A DNA stretch of 20,000 nucleotides, from positions 178,389-198,388 of the forward strand of contig PS015099.1 in assembly GCA_048213135.1 (NCBI GenBank), in the 5' to 3' direction. A program made the translations under genes and the position numbers. This document shows, one piece after another, positions 1-20,000 of the stretch (positions are counted from its first letter, which is position 1; each line of letters starts with the position of its first letter). The notes below the pieces were generated by a model, which was not told the origin of the DNA, ran no database searches, and was given only the letters and a program-made list of their open reading frames with translations. The DNA is from Reclinomonas americana ATCC 50394. Lineage: Eukaryota.

Positions 1-1737
1 GTGCCGGGGACGCTGACTGTTGGTGTGTTAACCTTCATGTGTTTTATAGAGTGCCATCTCTCTCTCTCTCTCTCTCTCTCCCCTTCTGCGTTTTTTGTAG
101 ATGCTCATGCTGATTTGTGGTGTGTGTGCAATGTGCAGTGGCTTTGGCGGAGTCGTTTTCGCCATCGTTAATACATCCGAACACTGCTGGCCAGACGGTG
201 ACAGTGACTGGGCGTGCGTTGACGGCAAGTGATACTGTGCGATTGGTGTCTGGCGGAACGTGCGTGAGTGGCACAACGACGTACAACATGACGAGTGGAG
301 CGTTGGGTGGGTCGGCTGGAGCGCGCACGCTGACCGTGTCGACGGGCAACACCAGTCTCGCGGCCGGATCGTATCTTGTGTGGTTCGTTTGTTGCCCTCA
401 TTTTTGTTTCTCTTCGTGCACTGCTTGTGTGACAATCCTCGTGTTTGTGTTTGCAGTTACTTGTACGGCGGAACAGGGACGCCAGTGCAAGTTGGCAGCA
501 CATCGCTTCTCGTCAGCAACGGTGAGTTCATTTACTCATGATAATATTAGCCAGCACACATGATTATTGACTGTCGTATTCTCGATCATATCAGCGTCGT
601 CGGCAACGACAAACGCCGCGTCAGCAGTGTCGTCGCTCACTGCGACACTGAATGGCCTGGTCACCAACGTTTCTGCTTCGGCCAGCAACAACTACTTTGA
701 GCTCGCGGTCGACAGCGGGGATTTCTNNNNNNNNNNNNNNNNNNNNAGATGGATCACACACTCAGCAAGACCTGAACCCACAACGCCATGTAAGATGCTC
801 TATCCGCCCGACAATTCACAGGACCTCCCTTTTCTTCTTCTTCCACTCACCGGTGGCGTACAGCCGATTACCGTTGACGACGACGCCAAACTGCACACAA
901 GAGTTGCGCCTCAGTTCGTTGTGCTGGAATCACAATACAACACAGCAAACGAAATCAATGAAGAACTACAAACCACATATTGCAACAGCGCACTCGCCAG
1001 TGGCCCGTTCACAGTGCCAGGCCCATGAACGACAGTTGAAACATCCATACTCGACAGGTCGAGTTGACGAATACTACCATGGCCGCCTTCGGCAACGTAC
1101 AGCACATCGCGCGTGATATCCAGAGCCACGCCGAATGTCGACTGGAAAGTCGCACTGAGCGCAGCTCCGTCATCTGATCCAATCACCCCAGTGCCCGCAA
1201 TCGTCGTCACTTGGTTCGTGGTCAGATTGATTTGTCGAATTATCATACTGATGCCAGAGCCAACATACAGCATATTGCGTGCCTGGTCCACCGCAAAGGA
1301 AGATGGCTGATTGAATGTAGCCGTCGATAAACAATCGCCGTTGGTGGTGCCGCTCGTATTTTGATGTCCGCAAAACAACGTCGCGCCAGTTCCGTCGCTC
1401 TTGATGCGACTGTATACGCGAACCTAGAAATCAGAGTCCGCATAACAGTCAACGAGCGTANNNNNNNNNNNNNNNNNNNNNNNNNNNNNNNNNNNNNNNN
1501 NNNNNNNNNNNNNNNNNNNNNNNNNNNNNNNNNNNNNNNNNNNNNNNNNNNNNNNNNNNNNNNNNNNNNNNNNNNNNNNNNNNNNNNNNNNNNNNNNNNN
1601 NNNNNNNNNNNNNNNNNNNNNNNNNNNNNNNNNNNNNNNNNNNNNNNNNNNNNNNNNNNNNNNNNNNNNNNNNNNNNNNNNNNNNNNNNNNNNNNNNNNN
1701 NNNNNNNNNNNNNNNNNNNNNCGTACGTACGTACGTA

Positions 1738-1797
<60 letters not shown>

Positions 1798-3259
1798 CTC
1801 GTGGATACGACAGCTGCCCTTGCGACGAGCGCTGCGGCGACAGCCGTGTCCACGTACACGGCTACAGTGAACGGGTCGATCACGAACAACTCTGGTGCGA
1901 CGAGCAGCAACTATTTCGAGTTGGCGCGATCGAGTAGTGATTTCACGACAGCGTCGTCGGTGACGACGTATGCTGGCACGCTGGGCACTCCTGGAACAAC
2001 CAATGGACCGCTTGCGAGTGCGCTGTTCAACGATCCGCGAGTTACGTCTCTGCTTCCTGCGTGATTGCTTGTGCTTATGAGCGACCGCGAATGATATTTC
2101 TCCTGACACTTGATTTCGTGATGCGTTTGCACTGCAGGGCATTGTTGGCGACTCTAAAGGCGATTTGTACCTTGTGGAAGCAGGGTTGCGTGCCTTTGCT
2201 GCGTCTTGCGCCGATGAGCCGGCGATCACTTCTCGCTGAATCTCTCTCTCTCTCCCCCTCTCTCTCTCCTATTCCTTGCTCTTGCGCAGCAATAACTGCA
2301 TTCGGTTTATCGATGTGTCGTCGGGCATGGTGTCGACGTTTGCTGGTGTGTGTGGAGCAACTGGAGCATTGGTGGATGGTGTGGCGACTACGGCGCGGTT
2401 CAACGGGTTCGTGTGGTTTTTTCATTTGAGGCTGTCGTTAGATTGAGGTCGGAGTGTGTGTCTGACATGTCGTCGATAATGTTTCGTGCGTGTGTGCAGT
2501 CCACGAGGCCTCGCCATTGATCTGGAGTCGAGCACGCTGTTTGTTGCTGATGTGCGTGAGACACCGGGCGATTCGTTCGCCTTGTTTCTATGTCATGTGT
2601 ACGCTAGTTACCACGATGCACACTTCTCGTTCCTTCTTGCCACCTTGCTGCGATTCTGTTGTTCTATTATGTCATTCCTTTTGAAAAAAACACGAATTCT
2701 CTTTATCTTGACTTGGCTGTAAACTGTTGGCCATGTGCGTCTCTGTGAACTCACTTCTGTTTTCACAGTCATCAAACAACGCACTACGACGAGTGTCGTC
2801 GACTGGGTACACAACGACGCTGGTCACGAGCAGTAGTGCGACACCGGCTCCGGACTTCATCTACAGTGTGGTGTACGACGCGGGCAACGAAGTGTTGTAC
2901 TTTTCCGAGTTCATCCAGCATGCTGTGCGGTGAGTGGCTGGTGGAAAGTAAGCCTGGAGCAGCAGAGTGCAAGAGAGATTTTATTTATCAGTGAGTTGGT
3001 AGGATAATGTCAGAAAGTGCCAGGCTGACCATCTCTTTTGTGGCTTTCGTGTTTGTGGTGGTCTTTTTCGACGGGGTTTCTATCTCTATGTCATTTGCGT
3101 TTACTGAACCCTCTGTGTNNNNNNNNNNNNNNNNNNNNNNNNNNNNNNNNNNNNNNNNNNNNNNNNNNNNNNNNNNNNNNNNNNNNNNNNNNNNNNNNNN
3201 NNNNNNNNNNNNNNNNNNNNNNNNNNNNNNNNNNNNNNNNNNNNNNNNNNNNNNNNNNN

Positions 3260-3317
<58 letters not shown>

Positions 3318-5558
3318 AGTGGCTTCGGCGGAGTCGTTTACTCCATCGACGATCACGCCGAATACGGCCGGGCAGACGGTGACGGTGACTGGGCGAGCAT
3401 TGTCAGCAAGTGATGCTGTGCGATTGGTGTCTGGCGGAACGTGCGTGAGTGGCACGACGACGTACAACATGACGAGTGGAGCTGTGAGTGGGTCGGCTGG
3501 AGCGCGCACGCTGACTGTGTCGACGGGCAACACCAGTCTGGCGGCCGGATCTTATCTTGTGTGGTACGCTCACTGTATTGCGTTTTGTGACTCTCCTTGT
3601 GCAGTACTTGTGTGTCACCCTCGTGTTTGTGTTTGCAGTTACTTGTACGGCGGAACGGGTACGCCAGTGCAAGTTGGCAGCACGTCTTTAACCGTTGCAA
3701 CAGGTGTGTTCTATGTTGTATCACTTTGCATCCATTTTCCCGCTTTTCACTCTCTCCTTTGGCAACAGGAACAAGCGTGACGAGCTTCACGCCGAGCAAC
3801 ATCATTGCGGAGACGAGTGGAGTGCAAGTGACTGTGAGTGGCAGTGGTCTGGCGGATGCGGATGTGGTGCAAGTTCAGAGTGCGGGATCGTGCACGGGTG
3901 CTGGCACCGTGCTGTCTCTCGTTTCGACGGCTGCCGATGGACTGACCACGATTCGGCAAACCACGAGCACGTCGCTTGCGGCGGGATCGTACTGGGTGTG
4001 GTGCGTGTGTTTGTGTCGTTCGGATTGGAAGACATGCATGTGTGCAACGAGCGAAGAAGCGTTCGTGCTTTAGCAAGCAAGCAAGAGAGTTAGAGAGAGA
4101 GAGAGGGAGAAGAAGATCTACGAACGAGATTGCATGTTTCGTCTTGAACTGATCAGACTGGCGTGTGTTTCTCGCACAGCATTCACTTTGCGAGCGCGGG
4201 TGCGGGTGTCTGGCAGCAAGTGCCGGGCGTACTGACAGTAGGTGCGTGTCTGTGTGGCATGTGTTGAACTGAGAACTGTCACCCTTCTTCTCTCTCTCTC
4301 TCTCTCTGTGTGTGTATGTGTGTGTGTATGTGTGCGTGTGTATGTGTGTGTATATGTGTGTGTTGTGTGTGTGTGTTGTTTTTCGTAACGAGTTGACCTC
4401 ATGCTGATTGTGATGTGTGATGTGCAGTGGCGTCGGCGGAGTCGTTTTCTCCGTCGACGATTACACCCAACACGGCTGGCCAGACGGTGACGGTGACTGG
4501 GCGAGCATTGTCAGCAAGTGATGCTGTGCGATTGGTGTCTGGTGGCACGTGCGTGAGCGGCACGACGACGTACAACATGACGAGCGGAGCAGTGGGTGGG
4601 TCGGCTGGAGCGCGCACGCTGACTGTGTCGACGGGCAACACGAGTCTGGCGGCCGGATCGTATCTCGTGTGGTTCGTTTCTGCATTCAGTGTGCGACTCT
4701 CCTTGGGTACTGTTGTTGTGACATCCTCGTGTTTCGGTGCAGTTACTTGTACGGCGGAACGGGGACGCCAGTGCAAGTTGGCAGCACGTTGCTTCTCGTA
4801 AGCAATGGTTTGTTCGTTTTCATGATATTATCCTCATTACGCATGATTATTGACTGATGTATTCTCGATCGTCTCAGCGTCGTCGGCAACGACAAACGCC
4901 GCGTCAGCAGTGTCGTCGCTCACTGCGACACTGAATGGTCTGGTCACCAACATTTCTGCGTCGGCCAGCAACAACTACTTTGAGCTTGCGGTCGACAGCG
5001 GGGATTTCTCGACGGCGTCCGCGGTCAGCACCTTTGCTGGCAGCTATAATACCAACGGTTTCAAGAACGACGATCGACTGCATGCGATGTTCAATGGCCC
5101 ACTTGTTGAGTAACTGATCGCATGATTTACCATGCAACATGCTATGTATGAGTTTTTTTCCGATCTTGATCTCATGTGTTTTCATTTGTTAGGGAATGAC
5201 AACGGATGCACGCGGCAATCTGTATGTCGCCGACTACCTGTTGCGTTGATGCCCGCATGTATTGCCATGATGACGCAGACCTGATTTGACTCTGGTGTGT
5301 GCTTCCGTGCAGCAATCAATGCATCCGATTTGTCGACATTCACTCTGGAGATGTGTCGACATACACTGGCGGATGTGGCCAGACGCACGACTATGTGAAC
5401 GGCGGTCCGTCTGTTGCTCGATTCTATAAGTTGCGTTGAATTGCTGCTGTTGTGCGCGCGCGGGGTTCCTCTCTCGTTANNNNNNNNNNNNNNNNNNNNN
5501 NNNNNNNNNNNNNNNNNNNNNNNNNNNNNNNNNNNNNNNNNNNNNNNNNNTCCTCCTC

Positions 5559-5621
<63 letters not shown>

Positions 5622-8600
5622 TTTCCCGTTGTCTTTTGCTTTCCGTCGCCGCTGATCGCTTCCACCACACAGGCCGACAACAACGCCGTTCGTAAAGTGA
5701 CCTCAGATCGGACGACGTCCACCTTGGTGGACAACAGCACCAATTTGAATGGCTCGCCTCTGATCGACAGTGCGTTCATTGTCGCCTACGATTCATCGTC
5801 GCAATTCGTGTACTTTAGCTCGTACAACACGCACACCATTCGGTACGTAAAGTCGCGTATTAACTGTGTTTGCACTCTGACCCCATTATTTGGCGCACAC
5901 AGTCGCATCAAGAGTGACGGGACTGGCGCGATTGTGTTCTGCGGACAACACACGACGGGTGGCACTACCGATGGCGACTGCGCGACGGCAGCTAAATTCA
6001 CTCTACCGTCTTCGATTGCGGTCGATCAGGCACGCAATGTGCTGTATGTCGGCTCTGGTTCCAACGTGGTAATTCGACAAATCAATCTGACCACGAACCA
6101 AGTGACGACGATTGCGGGCACTGGGGCTGCTGGATCAGGTGATGGAGCTGCACTCAGTGCGACTTTCCAGTCGACATTCGGCGTGGTTCTGGATATCACG
6201 CGCGATGTGTTGTACGTTGCCGAACGCGACCGTGGCAGCGTCCGCCAGCTCAACCTGTCGAGCATGAACGTCTCGACCGTTGTCAACGGCCCGAGTGGCA
6301 GTGTCAACGGGCCACTGGCAAATGCGCAATTCAACTTTGCGGTGAGTATCTTGCTTCTCTGCTGCGCTATGGTTTCTCTCGTGAGTCCAAAGGAATGGAC
6401 TGACACGCTACTCTTGTGTGCAGTTTGGCATCATCGTCGACGGTAATCGGTTGTATGTCACCGGTGAGTCAGAAAATGAGCAGAGGGGAGGGCTTGTGAA
6501 CTGCTGGAGGTATTGAGCATCTTACACGTGGGATTGTTGGTACAGACTTCAGCGCATGTGTGGTCCATCTCATCAAGTTGCAACCATCAACTGCACGGAT
6601 CACGGCATCGCCGAGCACGACCGGGGCCGGCTCTTCTGCGTCGATATCCAAGGCTGTCGCGCAACTCAACAGCGGAGCGACGTACTACTTCCGTGCGGTG
6701 ACTGTGTTGTCCGACTCGACGGTGCTTACCGGATCGACGCTGTCGTTTACGAGTGCGTCTGCGCGTGTGTGTATGATATATATTTGTGATTGATGGACTG
6801 CAATATCTAACACATGCCGTGATGTGGTATGCAGCAACTGGAGCACTGACGACAGGGTTCTCGCCGACGTCGATTGCAGCGACGACGAGCAATGTGCAGA
6901 TTGTGGTGACGGGTGTGAACTTGTTGGCGAGCGATGTGGTGCAAGTGGAGTCTGGAGCGTCGTGCAGCGGCAGTGGGACGGCGCTGACGCACGTGTCGGT
7001 GTCGAGTGACGGGACAACGAAAACAGTCAAGACGCCGAGTCCGTCGACGGCACTGACGAATGGATTGGACTCTGTGTGGTACGTGGGTGTGAAGGAAGAG
7101 AGGGAGAGGGAGATAGGAAAGGGGAAGAAGTAGAAGGAGCAGAAGAAGAAGGAAGAGAGAGAGAGATAGGACGAAGGAGATGGAGAGAGAGAGAGAGAGT
7201 GAAGAAGAAGAGAGAAAAATGAGGAGGTGGACGAGGATAGAGAGTTGTGGAACTCGGTGCGTTTTCTGACGTATTGTTCTTGTTGATGTCACTGTTATTA
7301 TTGCTGTTGTGCGTGTTCAGTTACTTGTATGGAGGCGTGGGCGCGGCGGAGCGTGTCGGAACGACGTCGCTTGTTATCGGCAATGGTTTGTTGGATGTTC
7401 GGGGCGCATTTTGCCTGTTGTCGCATGTCGTTGATATTTCTCTCTCTCTCTCTCTCTCTGTGGGACAGCTGCCCTTGCGACGAGCAGCGCGGCGACTGCA
7501 GTGTCTACGTACACGGCGACGGTGAACGGGTCGATCACGAACAACTCTGGTGCGACGAGCAGCAACTATTTCGAGTTGGCGCGATCGAGCAGTGATTTCA
7601 CGACAGCGTCGTCGGTGACGACGTATGCTGGTACGCTGGGCACTCCTGGAACAACCAATGGACCGCTTGCGAGTGTGCTGTTCAACGATCCGCGAGTTGC
7701 GTCTCTGCTTCCTGCGTGATTGCTTGTGCTTATGAGCGACCGCGAATGATATTTCTCCTGACACTTGATTTCGTGATGCGTTTGCACTGCAGGCTATTGT
7801 TGGCGACTCTGAAGGCAATTTGTACCTTGTGGAAGCAGTGTTGCGTGCCTTTGCTGCATCTTGCGCCGATGAGCCGGCGATCACTCGTCGCTGACTCTCT
7901 CTCTCTCCCCCCTCCTCTCTCTCTCTCTCTTCTTCCTTAATGCGTGTCATTGCTCTTGCGCAGCAATAATTGCGTTCGGTTTATCGATGTGTCGTCGGGC
8001 ATGGTGTCGACGTTTGCTGGTGTGTGTGGAGCAACTGGAGCATTGGTGGATGGTGTGGCGACTACGGCGCGGTTCAACGGGTTCGTGTGGTTTTTTTGAT
8101 TTGAGGCTGTCGTCAGATTGAGGTCGTGTTGTGTGTCTGACGTGTCGTCGATAATGTTTCGTGCGCGTGTGCAGTCCACGCGGCATCGCCATTGATCTGG
8201 AGTCGAGTACCCTGTTTGTTGCTGATGTACGTAAGATTATTAACTCTCTCCCTATCTCTGTTCCTGTTCCCGTGACTCTGTATTCTATCGATTCATTCCG
8301 TTTTCATCCCCTTCGTTGCTGTATTCGCTTCTGCTTGGCTGTTGGGTATTGATCTTCTGCGTCTCTGCGTGCTCACCCGCTTGCCGTCGTAGTCGTCAAA
8401 CAACGCCATTCGTCGCGTGTCGTCGACTGGGTACACGACATCATTAGTCACGAGCAGCAGTGCCACTCCCGCTCCAGACTTCATCTACAGTGTGGTGTAC
8501 GATGCGGGCAACGAGGTGTTGTACTTCTCCGAGATTAACACGCATACAGTAAGGTTAGTGGCAGGTGGGAAATGAGCATGGTACAGCCGAATGCAAGGGA

Positions 8601-10447
8601 GTAGAAATTATGTTTCTGTGTGGAGTGTGATCCTTGAGCAGCATTTGTACTCATCTCTGTTTGAGCTGCCCTTCCGCTTCTCCGTGTGCTTCTCTGATAC
8701 AACTGTCGGCGATGGAACACGTTCACTCATGATTTTATCTTTGTATTCCCCCCTTTTTCACAGGCGTGTGAACGCCGACGGCTCGTCCCTCACACTACTG
8801 TGCGGTCAATACGGCACTTCTGGCGCTGCCGACGGCGACTGCTCAACCACTACACCGACATTCAACGAACCCGCGGGACTGGCACTCGACCTGTCAGTCA
8901 ACAAACTATACGTGGGGTCACGTAACGGACGTAAGATTCGTCAACTGGACTTGGCGGCGAGCCCACTGCAGCTTGGCACTCTGGTTGGCCAGGATACTAT
9001 TGGGTACACTGTGGGCCCCGCTGCAACTGCCAAGTTCTCCGATCCACGCGCGCTGTACCTGGACGAAGTGCGACGGATTCTGTTCATTGCAGACGTGTCA
9101 GTCGGCGTCAAGCAACTCGATCTCAATACCATGATCGTGTCGGCCCTCACAGTTGCTGCCCTAAGCGCACAGCCTGTCGACGGACCGTTGATGGATGCCA
9201 TTGTGTCCACGCCGGTGCGTGCGAACGTAGTGGAGTGTGTATTATTATCTTCCTTTCTCTCTCCCCCTCCCTTCTCTCTGGTGCGTATGCGTGCGCCTTT
9301 GAGCGATATTCGTGCTTGCTCGTTAGTCGATCGTGTTCACATCTTTATGAATTGTAGCTTCGTGCGCAACAGCTAGTTGCCGTACAGTATGTGGCAATGT
9401 GTGTCACTGATGTACTTACTTGCTCTTTTACAGTTTGGCATGTATTTGGCGCAAGGCAATCAACTGTATGTGACTGGTCAGTTGCAGATTTTTTGCGCGC
9501 TCGGCTGATTGACGGCGACTGTCTCGCTCACTGTGTTCATTTGTATTAGAGTTTATCGGTTCTCCTGGAATTGGCAACATCATTCGATTGATCACGCTTC
9601 AGCCTGGAGAGTGCCGCATCACTGCTGGTCCACCGACAAGTGCGTCTGGATCGACCGTCAGCATCAGTGATGCACTGTCGCAGCTGACGCCTGGATCGGC
9701 CAACTATTTCCGTGCGGTGACTGTGCTGTCGGATTCGACTGTGGTGGCCGGGTCGACGCTGTCGTTCACGACGAGTTGCGTTGGCGGAGTGGGTGGTTCC
9801 CTTTGCGCAACTCATGTTGACTTTGCTCTCGTCCCGCGTCGTGATTAGATGTTGCGCCATCGACGACGAGCTTTTCGCCGAGCAGCATTACTGCGGAGAC
9901 GAGTGGCGTGCAGATTGTTGTGACGGGCACTGCGTTGGTAACGTCGGATGTGGTGCAAGTGGAACTGGGAGCGGACTGCACTGGCGCGGGTACAGCACTG
10001 TCGTCGGTGTCTGTGGGCGGCGGCGGGACGACGAAGACAGTGCAGACAAGTGGCGTGTCGCTGGCAGTGGGATCGTATGCTGTGTGGTGCGTTTTGCGAA
10101 GAGACCAGGAGAGAATTGGAGAGAGAGGGAGAGGGAGAGTACGAGAATGCGGAGAGGGATGAGAAGAGTCGATACATGAGATGTCAGTGCGGTTGTTTGC
10201 GTGTTTGAGGGAGGCGATGAGAAGAAAAGAGGTGACGGTTGTTAGAGGATGTAGTTGTTGTGTTGGGTGTTTGCATTGACGAGTAGCTGGGGTCAATAGA
10301 TAGACAGTGTGGAGCAAGATGGAAGAGGGAGAGTAGAGTATGGCATCATCAAGCCGACTTGGTACGAAACTTACTTCTTCGATCTTTACAGCATCCAGTT
10401 TGGAGGAACGGGACTGTGGAGCACTGTGCCGGGGACGCTGACTGTTG
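1..10447 (+). CDS. Giant repetitive, probably extracellular protein (5' and 3' partial): Ig/IPT-like domains alternating with FN3-like domains that contain inserted NHL beta-propellers
   Basis: Phase-consistent exons: 1-22, 139-382, 457-521, 595-726(gap), 1814-2040, 2138-2184, 2290-2406, 2500-2551, 2769-2929, (gap), 3320-3563, 3639-3703, 3769-4000, 4160-4221, 4428-4671, 4743-4807, 4878-5104, 5193-5239, 5313-5429, (one exon probably in gap 5480-5550), 5673-5842, 5903-6341, 6424-6463, 6546-6752, 6835-7078, 7321-7385, 7469-7695, 7793-7839, 7964-8080, 8175-8226, 8393-8553, 8764-9214, 9434-9476, 9550-9774, 9849-10086, 10392-10447. NHL motifs include FNDPRGIVGDSKGDLYLVE, FNGPRGLAIDLESSTLFVAD, FNEPAGLALDLSVNKLYVG and FSDPRALYLDEVRRILFIAD. 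No start, stop, signal peptide or TM segment is visible; continuity across the gaps is assumed. Confidence 0.85.
139..521 (+). repeat. Ig/IPT-like module type X, copy 1 (other copies 3320-3703, 4428-4807)
   Basis: ESFSPSLIHPNTAGQTVTVTGRALTASDTVRLVSGGTC...LAAGSYLVC|YLYGGTGTPVQVGSTSLLVSN; near-identical DNA in three copies, two Cys, exons of 244+65 nt each time. Confidence 0.85.
747..1409 (-). CDS. Inverted fragment of the NHL propeller type A (second half), paralogous to 5903-6570
   Basis: Minus-strand exons 1409-974, 890-851 and 771-747 match plus-strand exons 5903-6341, 6424-6463 and 6546 onward in sequence and intron phase (RIKSDGTGATLFCGHQ...FAVDQARNMLYVG...FQSTFGVALDITRDVLYVAE). N gaps lie on both sides. 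Confidence 0.85.
1722..1791. repeat. (CGTA)4 followed by a (CT)n microsatellite in an intron at a gap edge
   Basis: Seen directly; similar (CT)n tracts at about 56-81, 5560-5618 and 7438-7459. Confidence 0.95.
1814..2929 (+). repeat. FN3::NHL module type B, copy 1 (truncated by gap 3119-3259)
   Basis: Exon sizes 227/47/117/52/161 nt, identical to 7469-8553; very high DNA identity including introns up to about 2551. Confidence 0.85.
3263..3315. repeat. (GT)n microsatellite directly upstream of a 3' splice site
   Basis: Seen directly; a compound (CT)n(GT)n tract also lies at about 4286-4378. Confidence 0.95.
3769..4221 (+). repeat. Ig/IPT-like module type Y (related copies 6835-7385, 9849-10447; the tail of another at 1-22)
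   Basis: TSFTPSNIIAETSGVQVTVSGSGLADADVVQVQSAGSC...GSYWVC|IHF...VPGVLTV; the same phase-2 intron splits the Cys codon as in type X. Confidence 0.8.
4878..6752 (+). repeat. FN3::NHL module type A, near-complete copy (copy 1 starts at 595)
   Basis: ATTNAASAVSSLTATLNGLVTNISASASNNYFELA [NHL blades] ...SISKAVAQLNSGATYYFRAVTVLSDSTVLTGSTLSFT. Confidence 0.8.
7469..9774 (+). repeat. FN3::NHL module type B, complete copy
   Basis: ATSSAATAVSTYTATVNGSITNNSGATSSNYFELA [about six NHL blades] ...SISDALSQLTPGSANYFRAVTVLSDSTVVAGSTLSFTT; eight phase-consistent exons. Confidence 0.85.
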
Positions 10448-10619
10448 GTGTGTTAACCTTCGTGTGTTTTATAGAGAGTGCAATCTCTCTNNNNNNNNNN
10501 NNNNNNNNNNNNNNNNNNNNNNNNNNNNNNNNNNNNNNNNNNNNNNNNNNNNNNNNNNNNNNNNNNNNNNNNNNNNNNNNNNNNNNNNNNNNNNNNNNNN
10601 NNNNNNAACCACGGCTCAC

Positions 10620-11855
10620 CCGGTGCAATGCCATACATGAACGACGACACGAGCAGCAGTGGGTAGTAATAAACAGGGGCACCCGTGCCGTCCGACGTGT
10701 TGGCCAAGTCATCGAGAATCACGAGGACCACGCCCGTGAAGGCCGCCAGCGACGCCAGCAACTTCTTCAACGAGTAACTGTCACACGGAGCGTGAGAACT
10801 AAAGGACACGGGGAGGAGGCGCGCGTCTGAACACCAACCGCTCCGTGGGTCCGACGAAAAAGTGGGCCAGAACCATGGCGAACACTGTGCCAGCAGCCTG
10901 GTTGAGAGAGAGAGCGCGCGCGCAGCAGAGGAACAAGAACAGGAGTGCACGCAACGCGGTGCCGTGGACATGAAAATGGCCGCGCTGCCAGCATTGATTC
11001 CCGCCGACTGCAGCAACAACAACGAAGGAGTGGTCAGACACGCAGCGGCCAGCCAACTACAGATGACAGACACCCAAACCTCCGCCTCCATGATAATGAT
11101 ACTCGGAATGAGGGAATTGGTGACCGCCAAGAACATGACTCTCCACAAGCCGCTGACCGTGAACAGCGCCAAGCGTAGCCTGCGTTCCGCGCACACGCCA
11201 AGACAGCGTCAGAAGAGCACACACATACACACAAACAGCGTTTGGCGAGGGGGCAAGACTGAACTTGGGTCGAAATGAGGGCACAAACAACGAGTAGCCG
11301 AGCAAGAAGAACAGCAATATGAGACCGCCACTGAGCAGTCGCACAGAGGCCATGCAAATCTGTGTGGACGAGTGAGTGAGTGAGTGCGTGCGTGAGTGTG
11401 TGTGTGTGTGTGTGCGGCAGAGTGCAAAGCTCGCGTACCGGAGGGAACCATCGGGCCAACAGCTGCAATGGAAAATGCGTGTCAGAGAGCATGCGCAGGC
11501 ACGTGCGTGTGTGTGAGTGTGAGTGTGACAGACACGCACCTTGATGAGAATGTACACCATGCCCAGCAGAATCAAAAACGATCTGCAGACACACCTCAAT
11601 GAGTCTCTCTCTCAACACACACACACTCTCTTTCTCTTTCGCGCGTAACATGTATCCAAAAAAGTTGAGGAGTTTCGTCGCCAGTGACAGTGGCGGCGCC
11701 CTTCTTACACTCGCCTGTGTGATTGCGCTCTTCAGCGAGTGCCTACTCTGTTGCATTGTGGCTGCCTTCTGGTCGGTGAGAGTGGCCACTGCAGAAGGCG
11801 GGACAGTGGTGGTGCCTCCCAGTGGCGGAGGCAGTAATGAGCCTCGTTGTGACAT
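10620..11855 (-). CDS. EamA/DMT-superfamily (drug/metabolite) transporter, 3' partial (runs into gap 10491-10606)
   Basis: Exons 11855-11650, 11582-11540, 11462-11439, 11359-11265, 11179-11080, 11007-10956, 10884-10839, 10777-10620 give ...FFGYISFLILLGMVYILIKLLARWFPPICMASVRLLSGGLILLFFLL...FLAVTNSLIPSIII...INAGSAAIFMSTAPLFAMVLAHFFVGPTERYSLKKLLASLAAFTGVVLVIL...; this matches the EamA pattern P...A..R / G.AA...T.PLF...LA......E....K......GV. Confidence 0.85.
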
Positions 11856-12493
11856 GCGACGACAATGAGTGTGTGAGTGTGTGGGTGCGAGAAGTGGGAC
11901 GTCGTGAAGTCGGTTTTTTGTGCGAGAGAGCAGGGTTTCTGCTTCGTTGCGTGTTGTTGCTGCTGCTGGTGTTGTTGTTGTTGTTTTACTCGTATGCGAG
12001 GGCAATCGCGGCGAGAGTGTGCGAGGGGAGCGCGATTTGACTGCAGGCGCGCGGGGCCGAGAACTCCGATCGCAAATGCGACAATATCACGTCCGCGACC
12101 CTCTCGACATTACGCCGGCAGTACGAGGTATGTGTGTACAACATAAGCGCGTTGAGGCTGTGCAAGTGTCATGGACTCTATTTCGACGATCGTTGTGAAT
12201 TTGTGTGACTTTTGCGCTGACAAAGCCGACGCCCGCACAGCAGACCGCCGTCTCCAGTGCCGAGAGATAGAGAAGCCACAGTACTGGCTGATAAGTCTGC
12301 TTCGTGAACCGTAGAGAGCCATCGAAGCACAGCGGAGGATCGAGAACGAAATGGTGTGGAACTCCTTCTCGACATCAATACGCAAGCAACGACAGAGTAG
12401 ATGCAGTGGATCCGCAGCGCGTACTGAAGACTGTCGCAACGACTGCGAAACAGTGTCAAAGCATTCCACAAAGGCACAGCGCAAAAGCTCTGA

Positions 12494-12815
12494 CTGCGTG
12501 ACATAAAGCTTCCAAATTGCGACTTGGTGTTACAGCTCCCCTTCACCTCTCTTCGCGCCTCCACGACAGAAGGCTCCGCCCACGTGCACAGAGCGACGAG
12601 GTGCTGCGGCTCCCTTCAGACGCCATCGCTGTGAACAAGTGAATGCACAGCGAGGATGCACGACCTCCGCGACATAAAGCTTCCAAACAGCGACGCAGTG
12701 TCGCGGCTCCCCTGCACTCCATCGCCGTGAGTAAGCTCTTCCTCCGTGACAGAAGGCTTCCCAGCGACGCAGTGTTGCAGCCTTTCTCCACGCCATCGCC
12801 ATGAACAAGCCTTTT
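12494..12815. repeat. Degenerate four-unit tandem repeat (about 65-105 nt units, ABAB arrangement) in the divergent intergenic region
   Basis: Units start at about 12494, 12559, 12665 and 12742. Units 1 and 3 share GACATAAAGCTTCCAAA, units 2 and 4 share GACAGAAGGCT; GCGAC..GTG...GCTCCC and CCATCGC..TGA..AAG recur. Confidence 0.75.
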
Positions 12816-13650
12816 CGAATCCTCACCAGTCTTCCTCGTGCGCGCACGCAAGCAAACGCCCAGCTCCAACAACAAGCTTCCTCCGTGTATCTCCCTTCCA
12901 CTCCCCGAGTGAACGCCTCCAGCCTGTTCCTTCTCCTTCTCCCGCTCACCGCAACTACGTTTTTCCCCCTCCGTCTGCCACCTTCCACACACGCACACAC
13001 ACAGACATTCACTCATGCACATCCTCAATACGCCCCTTCAAGTTCGGATGCGTGAAGAAGGCCACCGCCAGCGAACACACATCGTCGGGCTTCTCATGCA
13101 AACACTCTTGCACAAACTGCAAAGCGACGAAAAATTGAGCGCGCCCACTCACTCACACACTTACTCACTCAATGAGCGCGCACGCAACTGCTGAGATCAT
13201 TCTCCGCAGCTCAGGATGCGCGCGCATATACCGCTCATTCGCAATACGAAACGCAATCTGCAACAATGAGTCAGACACTCTCTCTCCTCTCTTTCTCTCT
13301 CTCTGACACACACGTACACACCTTCTGCGCATTCAACTGCTGTTGCTCGCCAATAGAGAGCGACGTGGCCGACACTTCCTCGCCGCTCATCTCCAACACA
13401 ACCGCTGATGACTCATCACGCTCCAACCAATCTGTCCCATTGTCCGCCCTTATTTTTCCGATACGATGTCTCAAGCAGCGACTGTGGCCCGAGTGCGCTT
13501 ATCCCGACATTCGCCCGTGTGCCTGTACGCACAGGAACCCTGGACACCGACCGACTCGACAGCAAAGTCTCCTCTTTTCGTCCTCTTTCTTCTTCTCCTT
13601 TTCTTTACCTAAAGTTGCACTCTCTTACGTTTATCGGAGAGTCAACGATA

Positions 13651-16600
13651 ATGGTCCGTCTTGCGTCGGTGTTGTTGGTGTTGTTGCTGGTGCTCTTTGT
13701 GTCGTGCTCCTCTGTGGATGCAAGTTGCGACATTTTTCTTCTCGTTGTTTTGCCCTTCGTCGCGATCGCTCACAACAACGCTCTCTGCACAGGGAGAACG
13801 GTCAAGTGCGGACAGAGTTGAGTGCAGCGATTGCTTTCTGTGCGCGGCACTGCATCGCCACACCACTGACCGTGTACACACACACGCACAGCATCTGTGA
13901 GCGATACTAATGTGCAGGCGACGATCACGTGCGGAGGTCAGGTGCGGCCACTCGGTAACGCCATGCCGGTGGCGATCAACTCGGCTTCCTGGGGTCGAAG
14001 CATTGGTGAGAAGTTTTTCCGCGGCCATGAGAAGCCAGGACGACCCTTTGTTGGTGACTGACCTCGCTTGTTTGTGTGTGTCAGTGACCTCCACGTGCCC
14101 GATCTCGTCGATGTTTGGCAACACGCGCGTCGACTCACAAACGTGCGCTCCGTCGGATGTGGATGTGACGAGCTTTGTGGCGGCGGCGTGCGCTGGACAA
14201 GCGTCGTGCGCTGTCAGTGTGGCGGATGATGGCCCGCTCAACCGCGTGGGCCAGAGCGCCAATGGCGCGCTCAACGAGCCGTGCCCGGCCGTGTACAAGT
14301 ACTTGACGGTCGACTTCACGTGCAGCTGCGTGGCGGGCTTCATGGGAGCCGCCTGCGAGTGCAACCAGGCCACTGACTGGTGAGACGCGCTTTCATCGCC
14401 CTCGTCAGTATTTTCTCGTCCTCATTTCTCTCCCCTTCCCCTCTTGCAGCAACGTGCAGACGGTGCTTCCCAGTGGTCTGCCGGCCGGCACGTGCAACCC
14501 GAACGGCACGGTGGCCGGTGGCAACCTGTGCTTCTGCCAGCCGGGCTTTTACGGCGCGGCTTGCCTCGGCACGTGCAACTGCAAGAACGGTGGCACGTGC
14601 GCTGATGGCGCCTCGGGCGACGGCAAGTGCACCTGCCCTGCCGGTTTCTATGGCGCCGACTGCTCGGGCGTGTGCCCTACCTGCCTCAACGGTGGCACAT
14701 GCAACCAGGGCTCTCTGGGCGACGGCAAGTGCACATGCCCGGCCGGCTTTTTCGGTGCCGACTGCTCGGGTGTGTGCCCGCTGTGCCAGAATGGTGGCAC
14801 ATGCAACCAGGGTGCGCTGGGCGACGGCAAGTGCTCGTGCCCAGCCGGCACCAACGGCCCGCTGTGCCAGTGCACCAACGCCGGCACATGCAGCGGCTAC
14901 GGAGTGTGCCAGTCGGATGCGCAGTGCCTGTGCAACTCTGGCTTCCAGTCGCCGAACTGCGCCAACTGCCAGACGGGCCGGTACGGACCCGCTTGCGCCG
15001 GCCTCTGTTCGCAGTGCGATGTCGGCGGCACCGAGACGTGCAGCGAGGGCATCACTGGTCTCGGCTGCGTGTGCAAGAGCGGTTTCACCGGCACGCTGTG
15101 CGATCAGTGCATTGCGCAGGCGTTTGGTGCTGATTGCAGTGGCCGGTGCGCTGCTTGCGTGGTGGCCAACACGGTGGAGTGCGTGCCGGGTCGCTCTGGT
15201 GCCGGTTGCGTGTGCAAGCCAGGCTCGACTGGCTCGGCTTGCCAGTACACGGACGCGGTGACGTGCAGTGGCAAGGGTGTGGCGCAGACCGACGGATCGT
15301 GCGTGTGCACAACTGGCTTCGATGCCAGCAAGTCGTGCAGCACGTGCTTGCCGGGCCTGTTTGGTCCGACATGCACAAGCCAGTGCAGCGCTTGCTACGG
15401 TGCCGGCACGGCGACATGCTCGGAGGGTGTGTTTGGCACGGGCTGCCAGTGCAAGGAGGGCTTCACTGGCCCGCTGTGCGACAAGTGCGCTCCTGGTCGG
15501 TACGGACCGCAGTGCGCCGGCCTGTGCAGCGAGTGCTTGTCCAACGGCACGACGTCGTGCTCGGAGGGCCTGCTGGGAACCGGCTGCGCGTGCAAGCCTG
15601 GTGTTGTGGGCGACAAGTGCGACATGTGCAACCCGAACAACATCAACAGCTGCACGGACTTCAACAACGGCATCTGCGATCCGGTGACGAAGAAGTGCGG
15701 ATGCCGACCGGGCATCAACGGACCGTTCTGCGAGTGCCGTCCGGTGGAGTCGTGCAGCGGGCAAGGCACATGCAATGCGGATGCGACCTGCAACTGCTTC
15801 TATCCGTATGGTGGCTCTGACTGCAGTCAGTGCATCAACGGCATGTACGGCCCGAAGTGCGACAAGGGTTGCAGCGCGGCCACCACCTGCAATGGACACG
15901 GCACGTGCGACGGCAACGGCAACTGCGTTTGCGCCGACGGCTTTACTGGCCCACGTTGCAACACTTGCAAGTCGGGCTTCACGGGTCCGGACTGCGTGCC
16001 GATCCAGCGACAGACTGGCTGCCAGGACGACAACAATGCGGCAACTACGAGTGACGGTACAATTGTGGTGGCATGCCCGGCTGGCCAGTACGTGTTTGCC
16101 ATTTCGGCCAACTGGGGCCGCACCGACAGTTGCGTTTTTGAAAGGGAGAGAGTTGAGAAGAATCAGTTTGCTCATGTTAATTCCACACAGCCACGACATG
16201 CCCGAAGCCGCTGGGCAGCAGCTTGCTGACCAACACCACCACATGCATCAAGGACGTGACGGCGCACTTCCAGGGTCTGTGCAATCAGAACCCGCCGACG
16301 TCGTTCTGCTACGAGTTCCTGGCCAGCGGCGGCAACCTGGATCGCTTCCCGAACAACACGGGCTCAGATCCGTGCCCGTCGCAGTACAAGTTTGCGTCGG
16401 TGGCGTACGGATGCACAACGCGCAACTGCTCGAACCGCGGACGATTGGACGGAAGCGGTGCCTGTGTGTGCAACACTGGGTTCTCGGGCGACAACTGCCA
16501 GAACACCATCCCAGTGCCGCCGATGTGCGACGCCTCGGATCCGTTCGCCTGCAACGCCCCTCACAGTGGCTTCTGCAACAAGGACACCAGTCGCTGCGAG

Positions 16601-17363
16601 TGCTTTGCTGGCATTGGTGGACCCGACTGCTCGTGCCGTCCGCTGGAGACGTGCAATGGCCATGGCCTGTGCAACACCGACGGCTCGTGCTCGTGCTTCG
16701 CGTCGTGGAGTGGCGCGCGCTGCGATGTGTACGGTGGCCCACCGAATCCACCGATTCCGGGTGGTGGCCCGTGTGCGACGGATGCCGAGTGCAACAGCCC
16801 AGTGCCGAATGCATTCCTGTTCAGCGGCGTGTGCGTGGCCGGTCGCTGCCAGTGCTACCCGGGCATCAATGGCAAGAACTGCGAGTGCCGACCGGTGGAG
16901 ACGTGCTCCGGCAATGGCCAGTGCAACAGCGATGCCACATGCCGCTGCCACTTGGGCTGGACTGGTCCGAGCTGCAACGTGCGCGATCCGCAAACGGTTC
17001 CCCCGCCACCGCCGCCACCGCCACCACCGGTTCCGTTCCCGAACCCCTACCTCTGCGCCAGTGGTGAGCACACATTTCCTCTCTCTCTGTCCTTACGCGC
17101 GATGCTTGTCATACTAAGTGCACTTGAATGCTTGCGCAGACCTGGACTGCCGTGCGCCGTTCCTGCCCGACTGGCCCACACTGTACAACGGCACGTGCAA
17201 TCTGGCGACTAACACTTGCCAGTGCTATCCGGGCGTCGGTGGCGCTCACTGCACATGCCGACCGGTGGAGACCTGCAATGCCCGTGGCACGTGCCGTCCA
17301 GACGGCAGCTGCGAATGCCAGCTCGGCTGGAGTGGCGATCATTGCGAGGTGCCACCGACGTAA
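13651..17363 (+). CDS. Secreted 1093-aa protein with two SUEL-type (Gal/rhamnose-binding) lectin domains and multiple EGF/laminin-EGF-like repeats
   Basis: Exons 13651-13723, 13793-13816, 13892-14005, 14085-14379, 14450-16128, 16191-17063, 17140-17363 (3282 nt, TAA stop). Signal peptide MVRLASVLLVLLLVLFVSCSSVDA. SUEL1: ASWGR...C...VAAACAGQASC...EPCPAVYKYLTVDFTC. SUEL2: ANWGRTD...DPCPSQYKFASVAYGC. No TM segment. Confidence 0.92.
14574..14872 (+). repeat. Three tandem 102-nt (34-aa) EGF-like repeats
   Basis: C.NGGTC..G..GDGKC.CPAG..G..C; NGGTC codons begin at 14586, 14688 and 14790. Confidence 0.9.
14968..15630 (+). repeat. Four 47-aa laminin-EGF-like repeats in two pairs around one EGF
   Basis: C..GRYGP.CAGLCS.C...GT..CSEG..G.GC.CK.GFTG.LCD.C recurring in the 14454..16229 ORF. 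Confidence 0.8.
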
Positions 17364-17582
17364 TCCGGGCTCTCCCGATTATGTTTGGTTTGATTTCGGT
17401 CTGTGTGCATAGTTTTGCTTTTTTTATCCTTGCCAGAGTTCTCTCTTTTCCTCCTCCTCCTCTTCTTCTTCTTGTGTCGCAGAAAAAAGTGTACGAAGTT
17501 TGTTTTTCTTCATTCACCACCACAATCAATCGGCGACTGCAACACAAGAAGCCAAAGGTTCCCCACTCGCGCCGTACAATCA

Positions 17583-19938
17583 TTAACGTTGCTGCGAGTA
17601 GTTGCCGTATCCATACGGAGGTTGCTGTGTGGCAGTGCGACTTCCCTCAGTTTGCGACAACAAGAGACAGGAGAAGAAAGGAGTCGGTCGAACCTGCGCG
17701 CCAGGGTACGCTTGTTGCGGCTGCATGTACTGCGGGTACTGGTTTCCGTAGCCATACGCTCCGTACTGCACACATTGTGAGCAAGAAAGAGGAGGTGGTT
17801 GAGTCAGCAAGGGTGCACACGTGCGACGTACCGGTTGCGCCGCCGGCTGTCCGTAGCCAGCGTAGGGGTTGGGTTGCGCCACTTGCGGGTGCTGTTGGTG
17901 CATCGGCGGCTGCGCTGGAGGCGCGCGACGAGGGTCGTTCCACGTAGTGGTGCGCGTGTTGTGATCCACAAAGTACGTTCTGCAAACGTATCAACAGTGT
18001 GAATGCAACAAAAAAGACTGCGGCGGGTCGATTACGGTCTGCTCACCGGCCTTGAGCGTCAATGCACTCCTCCCAGCCCGGCGGCAGAGAATTGGCGGCG
18101 TTGGCGTTAGCCTCCGCCAGCTCTTGTGCGTACCGCATGTCCTCCTCCTCCTGCAGGCTGCGCACGAACAAGCAAGTAAACATGGTGAAAAACAGGTCGA
18201 CGCGTGCGAGTCGCAATACAGACAACAAAGTGACGCAACCGGCGCTGCTCTTCCTCCATCTGCTGTGCCTCCAGCGCCACGCGCTCGGCCTCCTCGATTT
18301 CACGCTGCCGTCGCTGTTCCTCCTCCCTGCGCCACTGCGCCTGACGAGCCTCTTCTGCCGCGCGACGACGCGCCTCCTCTTCCGCCGCCCGCCGACGAGC
18401 CTCTTCTTCTACTGCCCGACGGCGCGCAGCCTCTTCGGCCGCACGACGACGTGCCTCTTCCTCTGCAGCCCGGCGGCGCAACTCCTCCTGTCGCAACCGC
18501 TCCTCCTCGGCCGCAATACGACGAGCCTCCTCCTCGGCACGCCGCATGTCTTCCTCTCTCCGACGCGCATCTTCGGCATCAGCACGGCGAGCCACCTCCA
18601 ACGCCACTGGTAGATGCAACGAAGGAATGTGTAAGTGACACAGTCCAACGGAGATATGAGAGAGTGCACACACTGCTCAACTTCGTGCATCATCAACCAT
18701 CCTGCGCCGAATCTCAATGCGTGGATCCGACCACGAGGTGGTCTTGTTAACATGATCCACAAAGTAGTTACGATTGTGCGTGGCATCGAAACGCATCACC
18801 CAGCCGTCTGGCAACGGGAGTGCTTCCACAGGCGGCACGGAAATGCCCTGCACACACATGCACACATGAGCACAAGAAATCGACATGTGCGTGCGAAACT
18901 GCAGCTGCCCGCAGCTCACCGTCTCATCAACAACAGCCACTGGTGCGACAGGTCGAGGTCCTGACGTTGGTGCAGCAGGAGCAACGGGTGTAGCCGGAGC
19001 GGGCGCCATTGGAACGGCGACGGGGACAGCGGAGGGGACGGGAGGGACTGGAGGCGCATACGGAGTCGGAACGGCGGCGGGAATGGGAGCAGCAGCAGCG
19101 GCGGCGGCCGAGTTGGCGGCTTGTGCCACTGTGGAGCCGTTGGAGAAGTCCAACACGACAGGTGCGGCTGGCGGCAGCGAAGGGACGCCGGGAATTCCAG
19201 AACCTGCACATACCACGGATTGAGTGCAACCATCAACCATTCTTCTCCTGGCACTCGTACACGCAACGAAGCAGGCCAATGGCGGTCTCGGCATTGCGCA
19301 TCTTGCTCCATTCAGCGTCAGCAACTTGACCCGGTGGTGCAGCAGCACCCGGTCCGATCTGCATACGTGCCATGTCTTCCGTAACCAGCGTCACGCCGAC
19401 CAACCCCCTGATTAACAGTCGTCATATGTGAGCACGCATACACACACAAACGTATCGACGGATGGACAGGCACGCACGGTGGAGGTACTGGACGATCCCA
19501 CTGCGTGACACGAGTCACGTCATTTTGATAATATACACGCCCACTGGCCACATCCAACCGCTCAGTCCAACCCTCCGGCAGCGGAGCTGCGAGCGGAACA
19601 AAGCAGTCAGCTCACATAGTCACCCATGTCATTGGCCATGCGGAATAATAGACGCACGCATGGCTGCGGCCACTGGAACCGTGACAGCGGCCACGGAGAC
19701 TGCCGCCGCCGATGGCGCCAGCTGCATCACTGGCTGCATGGGTGTGAGCATGGGTGTGGGTGCGGCGACAGGCGACGGAGCTGCTGCTGCTGAGGCTGCG
19801 GCTGGAGAGGAGCTCGACACGGCGCGTGACGGACTGTTTGGTCCCGCCAGGAAGCCACCCATGGCACCGCCAGCGTTGCGCACCTGAACTGGTGCCCCAT
19901 CGACCGCAAAACCACCACTGCCGGACCCGGATGCGGCG
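17583..19938 (-). CDS. Multi-WW-domain scaffold/adaptor protein (5' partial) with Pro/Ala-rich linkers, an E/R single alpha-helix and a Y/Q/P/G-rich tail
   Basis: Exons 19938-19658, 19586-19478, 19407-19268, 19203-18920, 18847-18682, 18606-18240, 18157-18047, 17979-17832, 17765-17694, 17624-17583 (TAA). WW domains: [92 protein letters not shown]. Confidence 0.9.
18240..18606 (-). repeat. Charged E/R/A single alpha-helix exon with about five 9-aa repeats (AAEEEARRR)
   Basis: EELRRRAAEEEARRRAAEEAARRRAVEEEARRRAAEEEARRRAAEEARQ; alternating E3/R3 pattern typical of ER/K helices. Confidence 0.85.
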
Positions 19939-20000
19939 CTGGTGGTACCACCACAGGTGAGGACCACGTGAGTAAGCGAGTGCGCGGAATCAAGTGCTCA

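Follow-up and report, generated by a model that had tools for sequence, protein, structure and literature searches.

About a third of the predicted 5' splice sites (donors) in a 20-kb stretch of nuclear DNA from Reclinomonas americana ATCC 50394 carry an additional T directly after the GT, followed by the tail of an ordinary donor. The stretch (assembly GCA_048213135.1, contig PS015099.1, positions 178,389 to 198,388 of the forward strand) is called the window below, and positions are counted from its first letter. Two donor spacings can be recognised in the gene models of the window: GT-NN-GT, at about two thirds of the predicted sites, and GT-T-NN-GT, at about one third. We interpret the second as a real class of donors with a shifted register, probably present genome-wide. 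This is based on statistics from the sequence, and we assign it a probability of roughly 0.55.

The window has a G+C content of about 53% and looks like the DNA of a protist, with short and numerous introns. Exon-intron models were made by combining six-frame open reading frames (ORFs), an enumeration of the frame-compatible junctions and reading of the sequence; where homology was silent, the junction was partly chosen by its motif. In this way 57 donors were predicted in five genes, here called A (together with a fragment, A'), B, C, D and E. All the genes and gene fragments translate in one frame without stops. Every donor starts with GT; 39 have the form GTNNG and 18 the form GTTNNG, and no other form is seen. 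A T follows at +6 in 32 of the 39 and at +7 in 15 of the 18. The acceptor is known for 54 introns and is always AG (CAG in 50, TAG in four). Most introns are 60-125 nt long, and the shortest one called has 60 nt. With GT starts in 57/57, AG ends in 54/54 and a continuous frame after their removal, the predicted introns are best explained as genuine eukaryotic U2-type GT-AG introns. The U12 type has a long, conserved donor motif of the kind [AG]TATCCTT; it was considered and excluded, as this motif is absent from all 57 donors.

The GTT donors are spread over all five genes: eight of 35 donors in gene A (including A'), three of six in B, one of two in C, three of six in D and three of eight in E. 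Outside the repetitive gene A they make up ten of 22. A first-pass annotation, made from the letters of the window, had proposed a major second donor class; within the window this holds, while its frequency in the rest of the genome is something we infer. That annotation listed 17 donor strings, 16 of them firm and one, at 11264, tentative. All are present, with coordinates, strands and -1 bases as it had given them. Its count of 16 GTT-type donors among about 58 becomes 18 of 57, by inclusion of the tentative site and of an unlisted donor at 13188 on the minus strand. It also spoke of four genes; the window has five, as gene C, which codes for an RIIa-domain protein (13012..13390), had been overlooked.

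For 17 of the GTT introns the alternatives were scanned, that is, all frame-compatible GT-AG pairs within 60 nt; 5430 was excluded since its acceptor lies in a gap. The 18 donors and two ordinary comparators are listed here, with a slash at the exon-intron boundary. In the text each is called by the position of its first intron base.

2041..2047, plus strand: A/GTTACGT, phase 0, intron of 97 nt; the sole in-frame alternative deletes conserved residues.
2185..2191, plus strand: G/GTTGCGT, phase 2, intron of 105 nt, with G at -1; the alternatives lack a donor-like motif.
5105..5111, plus strand: T/GTTGAGT, phase 0, intron of 88 nt, paralogous to 2041 and 7696 but diverged; zero in-frame alternatives.
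5240..5246, plus strand: T/GTTGCGT, phase 2, intron of 73 nt, paralogous to 2185 and 7840 but diverged; the alternative 5222 deletes the conserved core of a blade.
5430..5436, plus strand: A/GTTGCGT, phase 2; acceptor lost in the gap 5480-5550.
7696..7702, plus strand: A/GTTGCGT, phase 0, intron of 97 nt.
7840..7846, plus strand: T/GTTGCGT, phase 2, intron of 124 nt.
9775..9781, plus strand: A/GTTGCGT, phase 1, intron of 74 nt, paralogue of 6753.
6753..6758, plus strand: comparator, ordinary donor A/GTGCGT without G at -1, paralogous to 9775.
10949..10955, minus strand: C/GTTGCGT, phase 1, acceptor at 10884, intron of 71 nt.
11258..11264, minus strand: A/GTTCAGT, tentative.
11643..11649, minus strand: T/GTTACGC (C at +7), phase 2, intron of 67 nt.
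13182..13188, minus strand: A/GTTGCGT in gene C, phase 0, intron of 72 nt with an in-frame stop.
13724..13730, plus strand: A/GTTGCGA (A at +7), phase 1, follows the signal-peptide exon; zero in-frame alternatives.
13817..13823, plus strand: A/GTTGAGT, phase 1, follows a micro-exon of 24 nt.
14006..14011, plus strand: comparator, ordinary donor G/GTGAGA, at the corresponding site of the first SUEL domain.
16129..16135, plus strand: A/GTTGCGT, phase 1, intron of 62 nt, within the second SUEL domain.
18233..18239, minus strand: G/GTTGCGT, phase 2, intron of 82 nt, with G at -1; ambiguous.
18675..18681, minus strand: A/GTTGAGC (C at +7), phase 1, intron of 75 nt with an in-frame stop; the alternatives lack a donor-like motif.
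19261..19267, minus strand: C/GTTGCGT, phase 1, intron of 64 nt.

For most GTT introns the alternatives either have no donor-like motif or would delete conserved residues. At 19267, for instance, the only other in-frame donor is 19237 (G/GTTGATG, with acceptor 19167), which is not donor-like. Further, the acceptor is known for 17 GTT introns, and 16 of these have to be spliced out for the frame to be continuous, as each has an in-frame stop or a length that is not a multiple of three; the same requirement holds for 33 of the 37 other introns. The micro-exon of 24 nt lies between 13724 and 13817, and at least one of these two donors is needed for the lectin exon to be in frame.

The two classes differ strongly in the last base of the exon. 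At -1 the GTT donors have A in ten cases, T in four, C in two and G in two, while 34 of 39 ordinary donors have G (Fisher p = 4.2e-8, raw); the first-pass annotation had reported the same depletion as 2 of 16 against about 36 of 41. Seen from the other side, 16 of the 21 donors without G at -1 are of the GTT type, but only 2 of the 36 with it. As had also been pointed out, some donors are paralogous and not independent, and the eight GTT donors of gene A represent only four independent intron positions. To correct for this, the introns of gene A were grouped into 11 positions, which gives 33 groups overall. When each combination of group, class and base is counted once, G is found at -1 in 2/16 against 17/21 (p = 4.7e-5), and with one row per paralogue group the p-value is 1.2e-4.

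The -1 position of the GTT donors resembles the -2 position of ordinary ones, where G is found in 4/39. At the -1 rate of ordinary donors, the probability of seeing two or fewer G among 18 is 6e-13. A is enriched at -1 of the GTT donors, with 10/18 against 7/39 at the ordinary -2 position (p = 0.006), and the A content of the exons is 19%. The intron part shows the same displacement. When positions +3 to +7 of the GTT donors are compared with +2 to +6 of the ordinary ones, the Kullback-Leibler divergence per column is 0.02-0.29 bits, compared with 0.8-5.6 bits in the same register. The +1G of the GTT class then corresponds to the ordinary -1G, and the sole clash is the T at +2, which falls on the ordinary +1G. 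The suggestion of the first-pass annotation that the +1G stands in for a missing -1G agrees with this match of the columns after a displacement by one base.

The triplets following GTT are GCG (12), GAG (3), ACG (2) and CAG (1), and all of them are also found after the GT of ordinary donors (GAG 10, GCG 9, ACG 6, GTG 4 and others, with CAG once). Read in the usual register, the GTT donors have T at +3 in 18/18 and never G at +5 (C in 14, A in four). T at +3 is in itself common in these genes: nine of the 39 ordinary donors, in the normal register, read GTT[CTAG]GT, each time with G at -1.

The motif is also informative about where donors are. GTTGCGT, GTTGAGT and GTTACGT occur 19 times in total on both strands, and 14 of these occurrences are called donors. 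With the same tails after GTA, GTC or GTG there are 31 occurrences and not a single donor, and of 83 occurrences of the plain hexamers GTGCGT, GTGAGT and GTACGT, 18 are donors. A GTT heptamer thus predicts a donor better than a canonical hexamer does, and only T will serve as the additional base. The number of heptamers is modestly above a second-order Markov expectation (19 versus 11.6, standard deviation 3.5), and the signal lies in their placement, not in their abundance. Among sense-strand heptamers within the gene models, 14 of 15 are located exactly at an exon end required by the frame. The heptamers that are not donors are at 15205 (plus strand, in an exon of gene D), 11946 (plus strand, intergenic), and 17798 (plus strand), 6670 and 8926 (both minus strand), the last three antisense to genes. 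The first of these, at 15205-15211, is the sole sense-strand case within the models: a GTTGCGT preceded by G in the long EGF exon of gene D. Either the motif is insufficient by itself, or this is a cryptic or alternative site.

Ten of the GTT donors, at six independent positions, are fixed in the models by evidence that makes no use of the motif, and all ten carry GTT followed by RMG(T). At 2041, 7696, 2185 and 7840, the spliced propeller blades align without gaps with three blades of this protein that have no intron, and both kinds of blade agree in the spacing F..P..[ILV]..D and in the distance between the L-Y/F and I/V-R pairs. At 5105 and 5240, in a third module, the blade spacing agrees by reading of the module alignment. 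This module has diverged so far that its introns are unalignable with those of the other two, and still the heptamers GTTGAGT (5105) and GTTGCGT (5240) are retained. In the near-identical paralogues 2185 and 7840 the GTT donor is the same and the -1 base differs (G versus T), which indicates that -1 is free in this class.

The other four of these junctions are supported by paralogous introns or by a solved homologue. Donor 5430 occupies the intron position of the ordinary donors 2407 and 8081 (both G/GTTCGT) in the sister modules. Donors 9775 and 6753 have the same phase and the same place except for one extra upstream codon, and 16129 and 14006 agree in place and phase in sister SUEL domains. 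Paralogous introns can therefore switch class, as the first-pass annotation had claimed, and this is seen in all three comparisons (9775 with 6753, 5430 with 2407 and 8081, 16129 with 14006). Both exons flanking 16129 match domain 3 of the lectin 5h4s_A, in alignments that end before the junction and leave its exact spacing unproven. For 13188 in gene C, residues 3-21 of exon 2 correspond to residues 25-43 of the Protein Data Bank (PDB) chain 9d5n_CR and residues 1-24 of exon 3 to residues 46-69; the E-values are weak (0.005 and 0.025), and the matches of the two exons make the junction gap-free.

How could such donors be recognised? We suggest that the recognition helix, formed first with the 5' end of U1 and probably then with U6, would lie one base deeper in the intron. 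The intron +1G would then be in the slot of the exon -1G, opposite C9 of U1, and +3U, +4R, +6G and +7U would take the slots of +2U, +3R, +5G and +6U. The +2U would face C8 and stay unpaired, while an A at exon position -1 would be able to pair with U10. The raised frequency of A at -1 (10/18) is as expected if pairing at position 10 of U1 is selected when there is no pair at C8. Since the first base of an intron must be a G for catalysis, the cut would be made 5' of the only available GU, one base upstream of the place set by the helix. A cut in the canonical register, with an intron that begins with TT, was also considered and rejected: the frame is lost with every AG acceptor.

In such a donor the last base of the exon would be freed from the requirement for G, and the class might be used where the coding sequence has no G at this place. 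The benefit of the class would be this freedom at the exon end. A GTT donor could originate from the insertion of a T within the intron, which is neutral for the reading frame; the pair 6753 (A/GTGCGT) and 9775 (A/GTTGCGT) differs by one T. In the other two comparisons the class changes together with the -1 base, from G/GTTCGT at 2407 and 8081 to A/GTTGCGT at 5430, and from G/GTGAGA at 14006 to A/GTTGCGT at 16129. The use of these donors in RNA, the shifted pairing to U1, the role of U6 and the frequency in the whole genome are what we infer from these patterns. The most complete version of the proposal would be that a large share of the introns in the genome is spliced through a second regular class, where U1 and then U6 bind one nucleotide deeper, the intron +1G replaces the exon -1G, and a one-base offset between cleavage and helix is the normal condition, kept by selection. 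To this full version we give slightly less than an even chance.

A number of observations weigh against a shifted-register class. The first concern the calls themselves. The scope is 20 kb and five genes, and eight of the 18 GTT donors come from the four intron positions of gene A mentioned above. Where the junction was chosen with the help of the motif, the argument is circular for that site. Further, about six of the 18 GTT donors have in-frame alternatives (11264, 18239, 11649, 10955, and 13724 or 13817). For 11264 there are several with an ordinary motif (11288, 11228), and 18239 has an in-frame rival at 18223 (T/GTCTGT) with acceptor 18150. The alternative to 11649 is 11622 (T/GTGTGT), which is in frame but gives an intron of 40 nt, compared with 60 nt for the shortest one called. 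At 10955 the nearer acceptor 10897 breaks the frame, while donor 10950 (GTGCAC) combined with 10897 keeps it; we prefer 10955 because 10950 would be the sole donor of 57 without G at +5/+6 and would have the shortest intron (53 nt). The intron of 13724 (69 nt, stop-free and a multiple of three) can be read through in frame.

The second group of observations concerns pairing to U1. Duplex energies were calculated with a nearest-neighbour model for the canonical, the shifted and the +3-bulge register, using a human-type U1 5' end (from PMC4856993) that may not be the one of this organism. In the canonical register ordinary donors have a mean energy of -6.4 kcal/mol. The means for GTT donors are -0.35 in the canonical, -1.2 in the shifted and -1.0 kcal/mol in the bulge register. 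For 16 of the 18 the canonical energy is 0.0. Compared with the canonical register, the shifted one gives better energies for ten donors, equal ones for six and worse ones for two, both of which have G at -1; six of the 18 are not predicted to form a stable duplex in any register. The energies are thus weak in all registers, and standard U1 pairing alone does not explain the strength of the GTT donors. Ordinary donors show no preference for A at -2 (7/39), which means that pairing to U10 is not generally selected. A scan with Rfam models found no gene for U1, U6 or any other small nuclear RNA (snRNA) in the window, with no family reaching its gathering score. The gap in energy could be closed by pseudouridine effects (PMC3950712), by U1-C or other proteins, by a different U1 5' end, or by a dominant role of U6 or U5.

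The weak energies lead to the first alternative, namely a real class whose definition does not depend on standard U1 pairing. The first-pass annotation had pointed in this direction too, with relaxed or modified U1/U6 recognition or variant snRNAs. The class could be served by a variant snRNA, either a U1 with a changed 5' end or a U6 with altered ACAGAGA spacing, or the +6G and +7U could be read mainly at the U6/U5 stage with a flexible spacer base, which would be an extreme form of an exon-independent, NN//GURAG-like donor class. The near-zero energies of most GTT donors with standard U1 speak for this. In addition, a review (PMC11732430) argues that loop 1 of U5 and the ACAGA box of U6, and not U1, set two anti-correlated classes of donors, a situation that resembles the loss of -1G seen here. 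However, in a U1 variant carrying an inserted A, C9 would still pair with a -1G, which does not fit with G in 2/18. The enrichment of A at -1 is most simply seen as pairing to U10 of U1, and the Rfam scan shows that the window holds nothing that bears on snRNAs. We consider this explanation unlikely.

Next, a U could be bulged out. Canonical U1 pairing would then extend from -1 to +2, one of the U's at +2/+3 would be looped out, and pairing would resume from +4 to +7 without any shift. The motif is exactly what this predicts, namely a GU, one additional U and then the rest of a normal donor (T at +3 in 18/18, with a tail of the normal type), and the acceptance of T only as the extra base suits a bulge that slides between two identical U's. 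The mean energy (-1.0 kcal/mol) is close to that of the shifted register, and for both donors with G at -1 the bulge is best or tied. Further, bulge +2/+3 and bulge +3 registers are listed for human sites, with 68 and 51 predicted (PMC4856993, Table 3). The exon end is what argues against it. In a bulged duplex exon position -1 stays opposite C9, so that -1G should be kept and favoured, and the observed 2/18 against 34/39 (P = 6e-13) is the opposite; this loss favours a shift of register over a bulge. A bulge also leaves unexplained why donors without -1G prefer GTT (16/21) and why A is enriched at -1. On balance a bulge seems to us rather improbable.

It could also be that the junctions are mis-called, that nearby ordinary donors or retained introns are the real ones, and that the class is an artefact of choosing junctions by frame. 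The in-frame alternatives with ordinary motifs at 11264, 18239 and 11649, the dependence of 10955 on the acceptor and the readable intron of 13724 are all in line with this. For the ten donors at six positions that are fixed by blade spacing, a solved homologue, paralogous introns or the sister lectin domain, it does not hold. Mis-calling would also have to explain why 14 of 15 sense-strand heptamers in the models are placed exactly at exon ends required by the frame, and why the heptamer is kept between paralogues whose introns have otherwise diverged. As an account of the whole class we find it improbable, and even a little more so than a bulge. Finally, a spurious T after GT from homopolymer errors is hardly credible, since errors in even a gapped draft (five gaps with 609 N, one piece possibly misoriented, 747-1460) would not select donors without -1G, recur at 18 of 57 sites or be common to diverged paralogues.

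The genes in which the donors are found are the following.

Gene A, 1..10447, plus strand: very long and modular, built of IPT/TIG-like domains and NHL-like propeller blades in alternation; divided into four fragments by N gaps; 33 donors, eight of them GTT.
Fragment A', 747..1409, minus strand: inverted paralogous piece of gene A, with the ordinary donors 973 and 850 only.
Gene B, 10607..11855, minus strand: membrane-protein-like, multi-exon, hydrophobic and interrupted by a gap; six donors, three of them GTT.
Gene C, 13012..13390, minus strand: RIIa-domain protein of 81 aa in three exons, a complete ORF from ATG to stop; two donors, one of them GTT.
Gene D, 13651..17363, plus strand: secreted protein that has a signal peptide, a pair of SUEL-lectin domains and numerous teneurin/laminin-type EGF repeats, a complete ORF from ATG to stop of 1093 aa; six donors, three of them GTT.
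Gene E, 17586..19997, minus strand: three WW domains and a Glu/Arg-rich coil, extending beyond the window; eight donors, three of them GTT.

The domains were assigned with Pfam and with matches in the PDB; for gene A the Pfam evidence is a weak TIG match. When one of its exons was used in a metagenome scan, a single relative was found, with 28% identity on a 2.9-kb contig, which is uninformative on donors. The modules 1814-2930 and 7469-8553 of gene A are near-identical including their introns, with differences for example at 2045 versus 7700 and 2184 versus 7839. This is due either to a recent tandem duplication or to a collapsed and duplicated assembly, and it means that there are fewer independent donors. 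The inverted piece, 747-1460 on the minus strand, is flanked by the gaps 727-746 and 1461-1721. It is a paralogue of 5903-6570 in gene A with identical intron positions, and is either a misoriented piece of the scaffold or a genuine inverted duplication. Perfect (CT)n or (GT)n microsatellites of 26-35 copies are found in introns at 1741-1792, 3262-3315, 4307-4376 and 5562-5618; three of them adjoin N gaps, and these gaps are probably explained by the microsatellites.

For gene B, single-exon queries gave no Pfam match and no relative in the protein library; an exon searched against the representative protein library gave one repetitive match of 2495 aa, which is uninformative. Gene B is therefore without usable homologues, and its three GTT junctions are not supported by homology. 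The PDB entry that matches gene C, 9d5n_CR, is described as 'RIIa domain-containing protein', while the last exon of gene C, padded to 47 aa by its open frame, had no match in the protein library. Between genes C and B, at 12664-12804, a unit of 74 nt is repeated 1.9 times (77% matches) in a stretch without a convincing ORF. The only match in the protein library for an exon of gene D is a protein from a transcriptome, with 29% identity. In the last exon of gene E an in-frame, pyrimidine-rich stretch of 48 nt (17645-17692, minus strand) starts with G/GTTCGA and ends with GAG; it may be an optional intron and is outside the count of 57 donors.

A single register is usually assumed for the 5' splice site. 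If a shifted-register class is real, the register would be a property of the spliceosome that can evolve and be selected. The genome would then offer hundreds or thousands of natural substrates for studying the position of the cut with respect to the helices of U1 and U6, and thereby a natural system for what fixes the cleavage site. It would also link the architecture of donors to coding constraint, as the last base of the exon is freed from G. In practice, gene prediction would be affected: with only one weight matrix for donors, roughly one in three true sites of this organism would receive a wrong score.

Shifted and bulged registers as such are already known and rare; what would be new is a frequent, regular class. 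In the literature searched, whose coverage leaves out most subscription journals, we found no organism for which GTT or shifted donors are described as a frequent class. Among papers on shifted base-pairing to U1, judged by title and the start of the abstract, none deals with a protist or microbe or with an abundant class.

The closest known system is the shifted-register 5' splice sites of human described by Roca and Krainer, where this mode of U1 pairing is experimentally established for a few sites (PMC4856993). Displaced and bulged pairings are known from human cells as rare exceptions whose proof needed suppressor genetics. All validated non-canonical registers together are estimated at 1.5% of 201,541 human sites (PMC4856993). 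The resemblance is close: a GU is cut, the pairs to U1 would be displaced by one, the exon -1 base is not G and the canonical register is poor. The human test oligonucleotide (PMC4856993, Table 2) even has A at -1, as is common here. However, the human shifted sites are a rare oddity, whereas here 18 of 57 donors belong to the class. In the donors described here +3 is always U, which would pair with A7 of U1 and leave a single mismatch at C8, the class goes together with a lack of -1G, and paralogous introns can differ in whether they have it or the ordinary class; in these respects they differ from the human sites. The human bulge +2/+3 and +3 registers are alike in sequence, with an additional U behind the GU of an otherwise normal donor, but the bulge keeps the pair between -1G and C9 and is predicted for only 68 and 51 sites (PMC4856993), while G is found at -1 in 2/18 here.

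A second comparison is with the two-class model of donors, AG//GUNNN versus NN//GURAG, in which a strong exon end is anti-correlated with a free exon end plus a strong intron part (PMC11732430). As in that model, the exon end of the GTT class is free (16/18 are not G). The differences are in the intron. Both classes of the model share one register, whereas here the exon-independent class has an extra U and its intron signal is one base deeper. Read in the usual register, the +3R, +4A and +5G that define NN//GURAG are not what the GTT class shows, with T at +3 in 18/18 and G at +5 in 0/18. The ordinary donors depart from the model as well, since here they combine G at -1 (34/39) with G at +5 (39/39).

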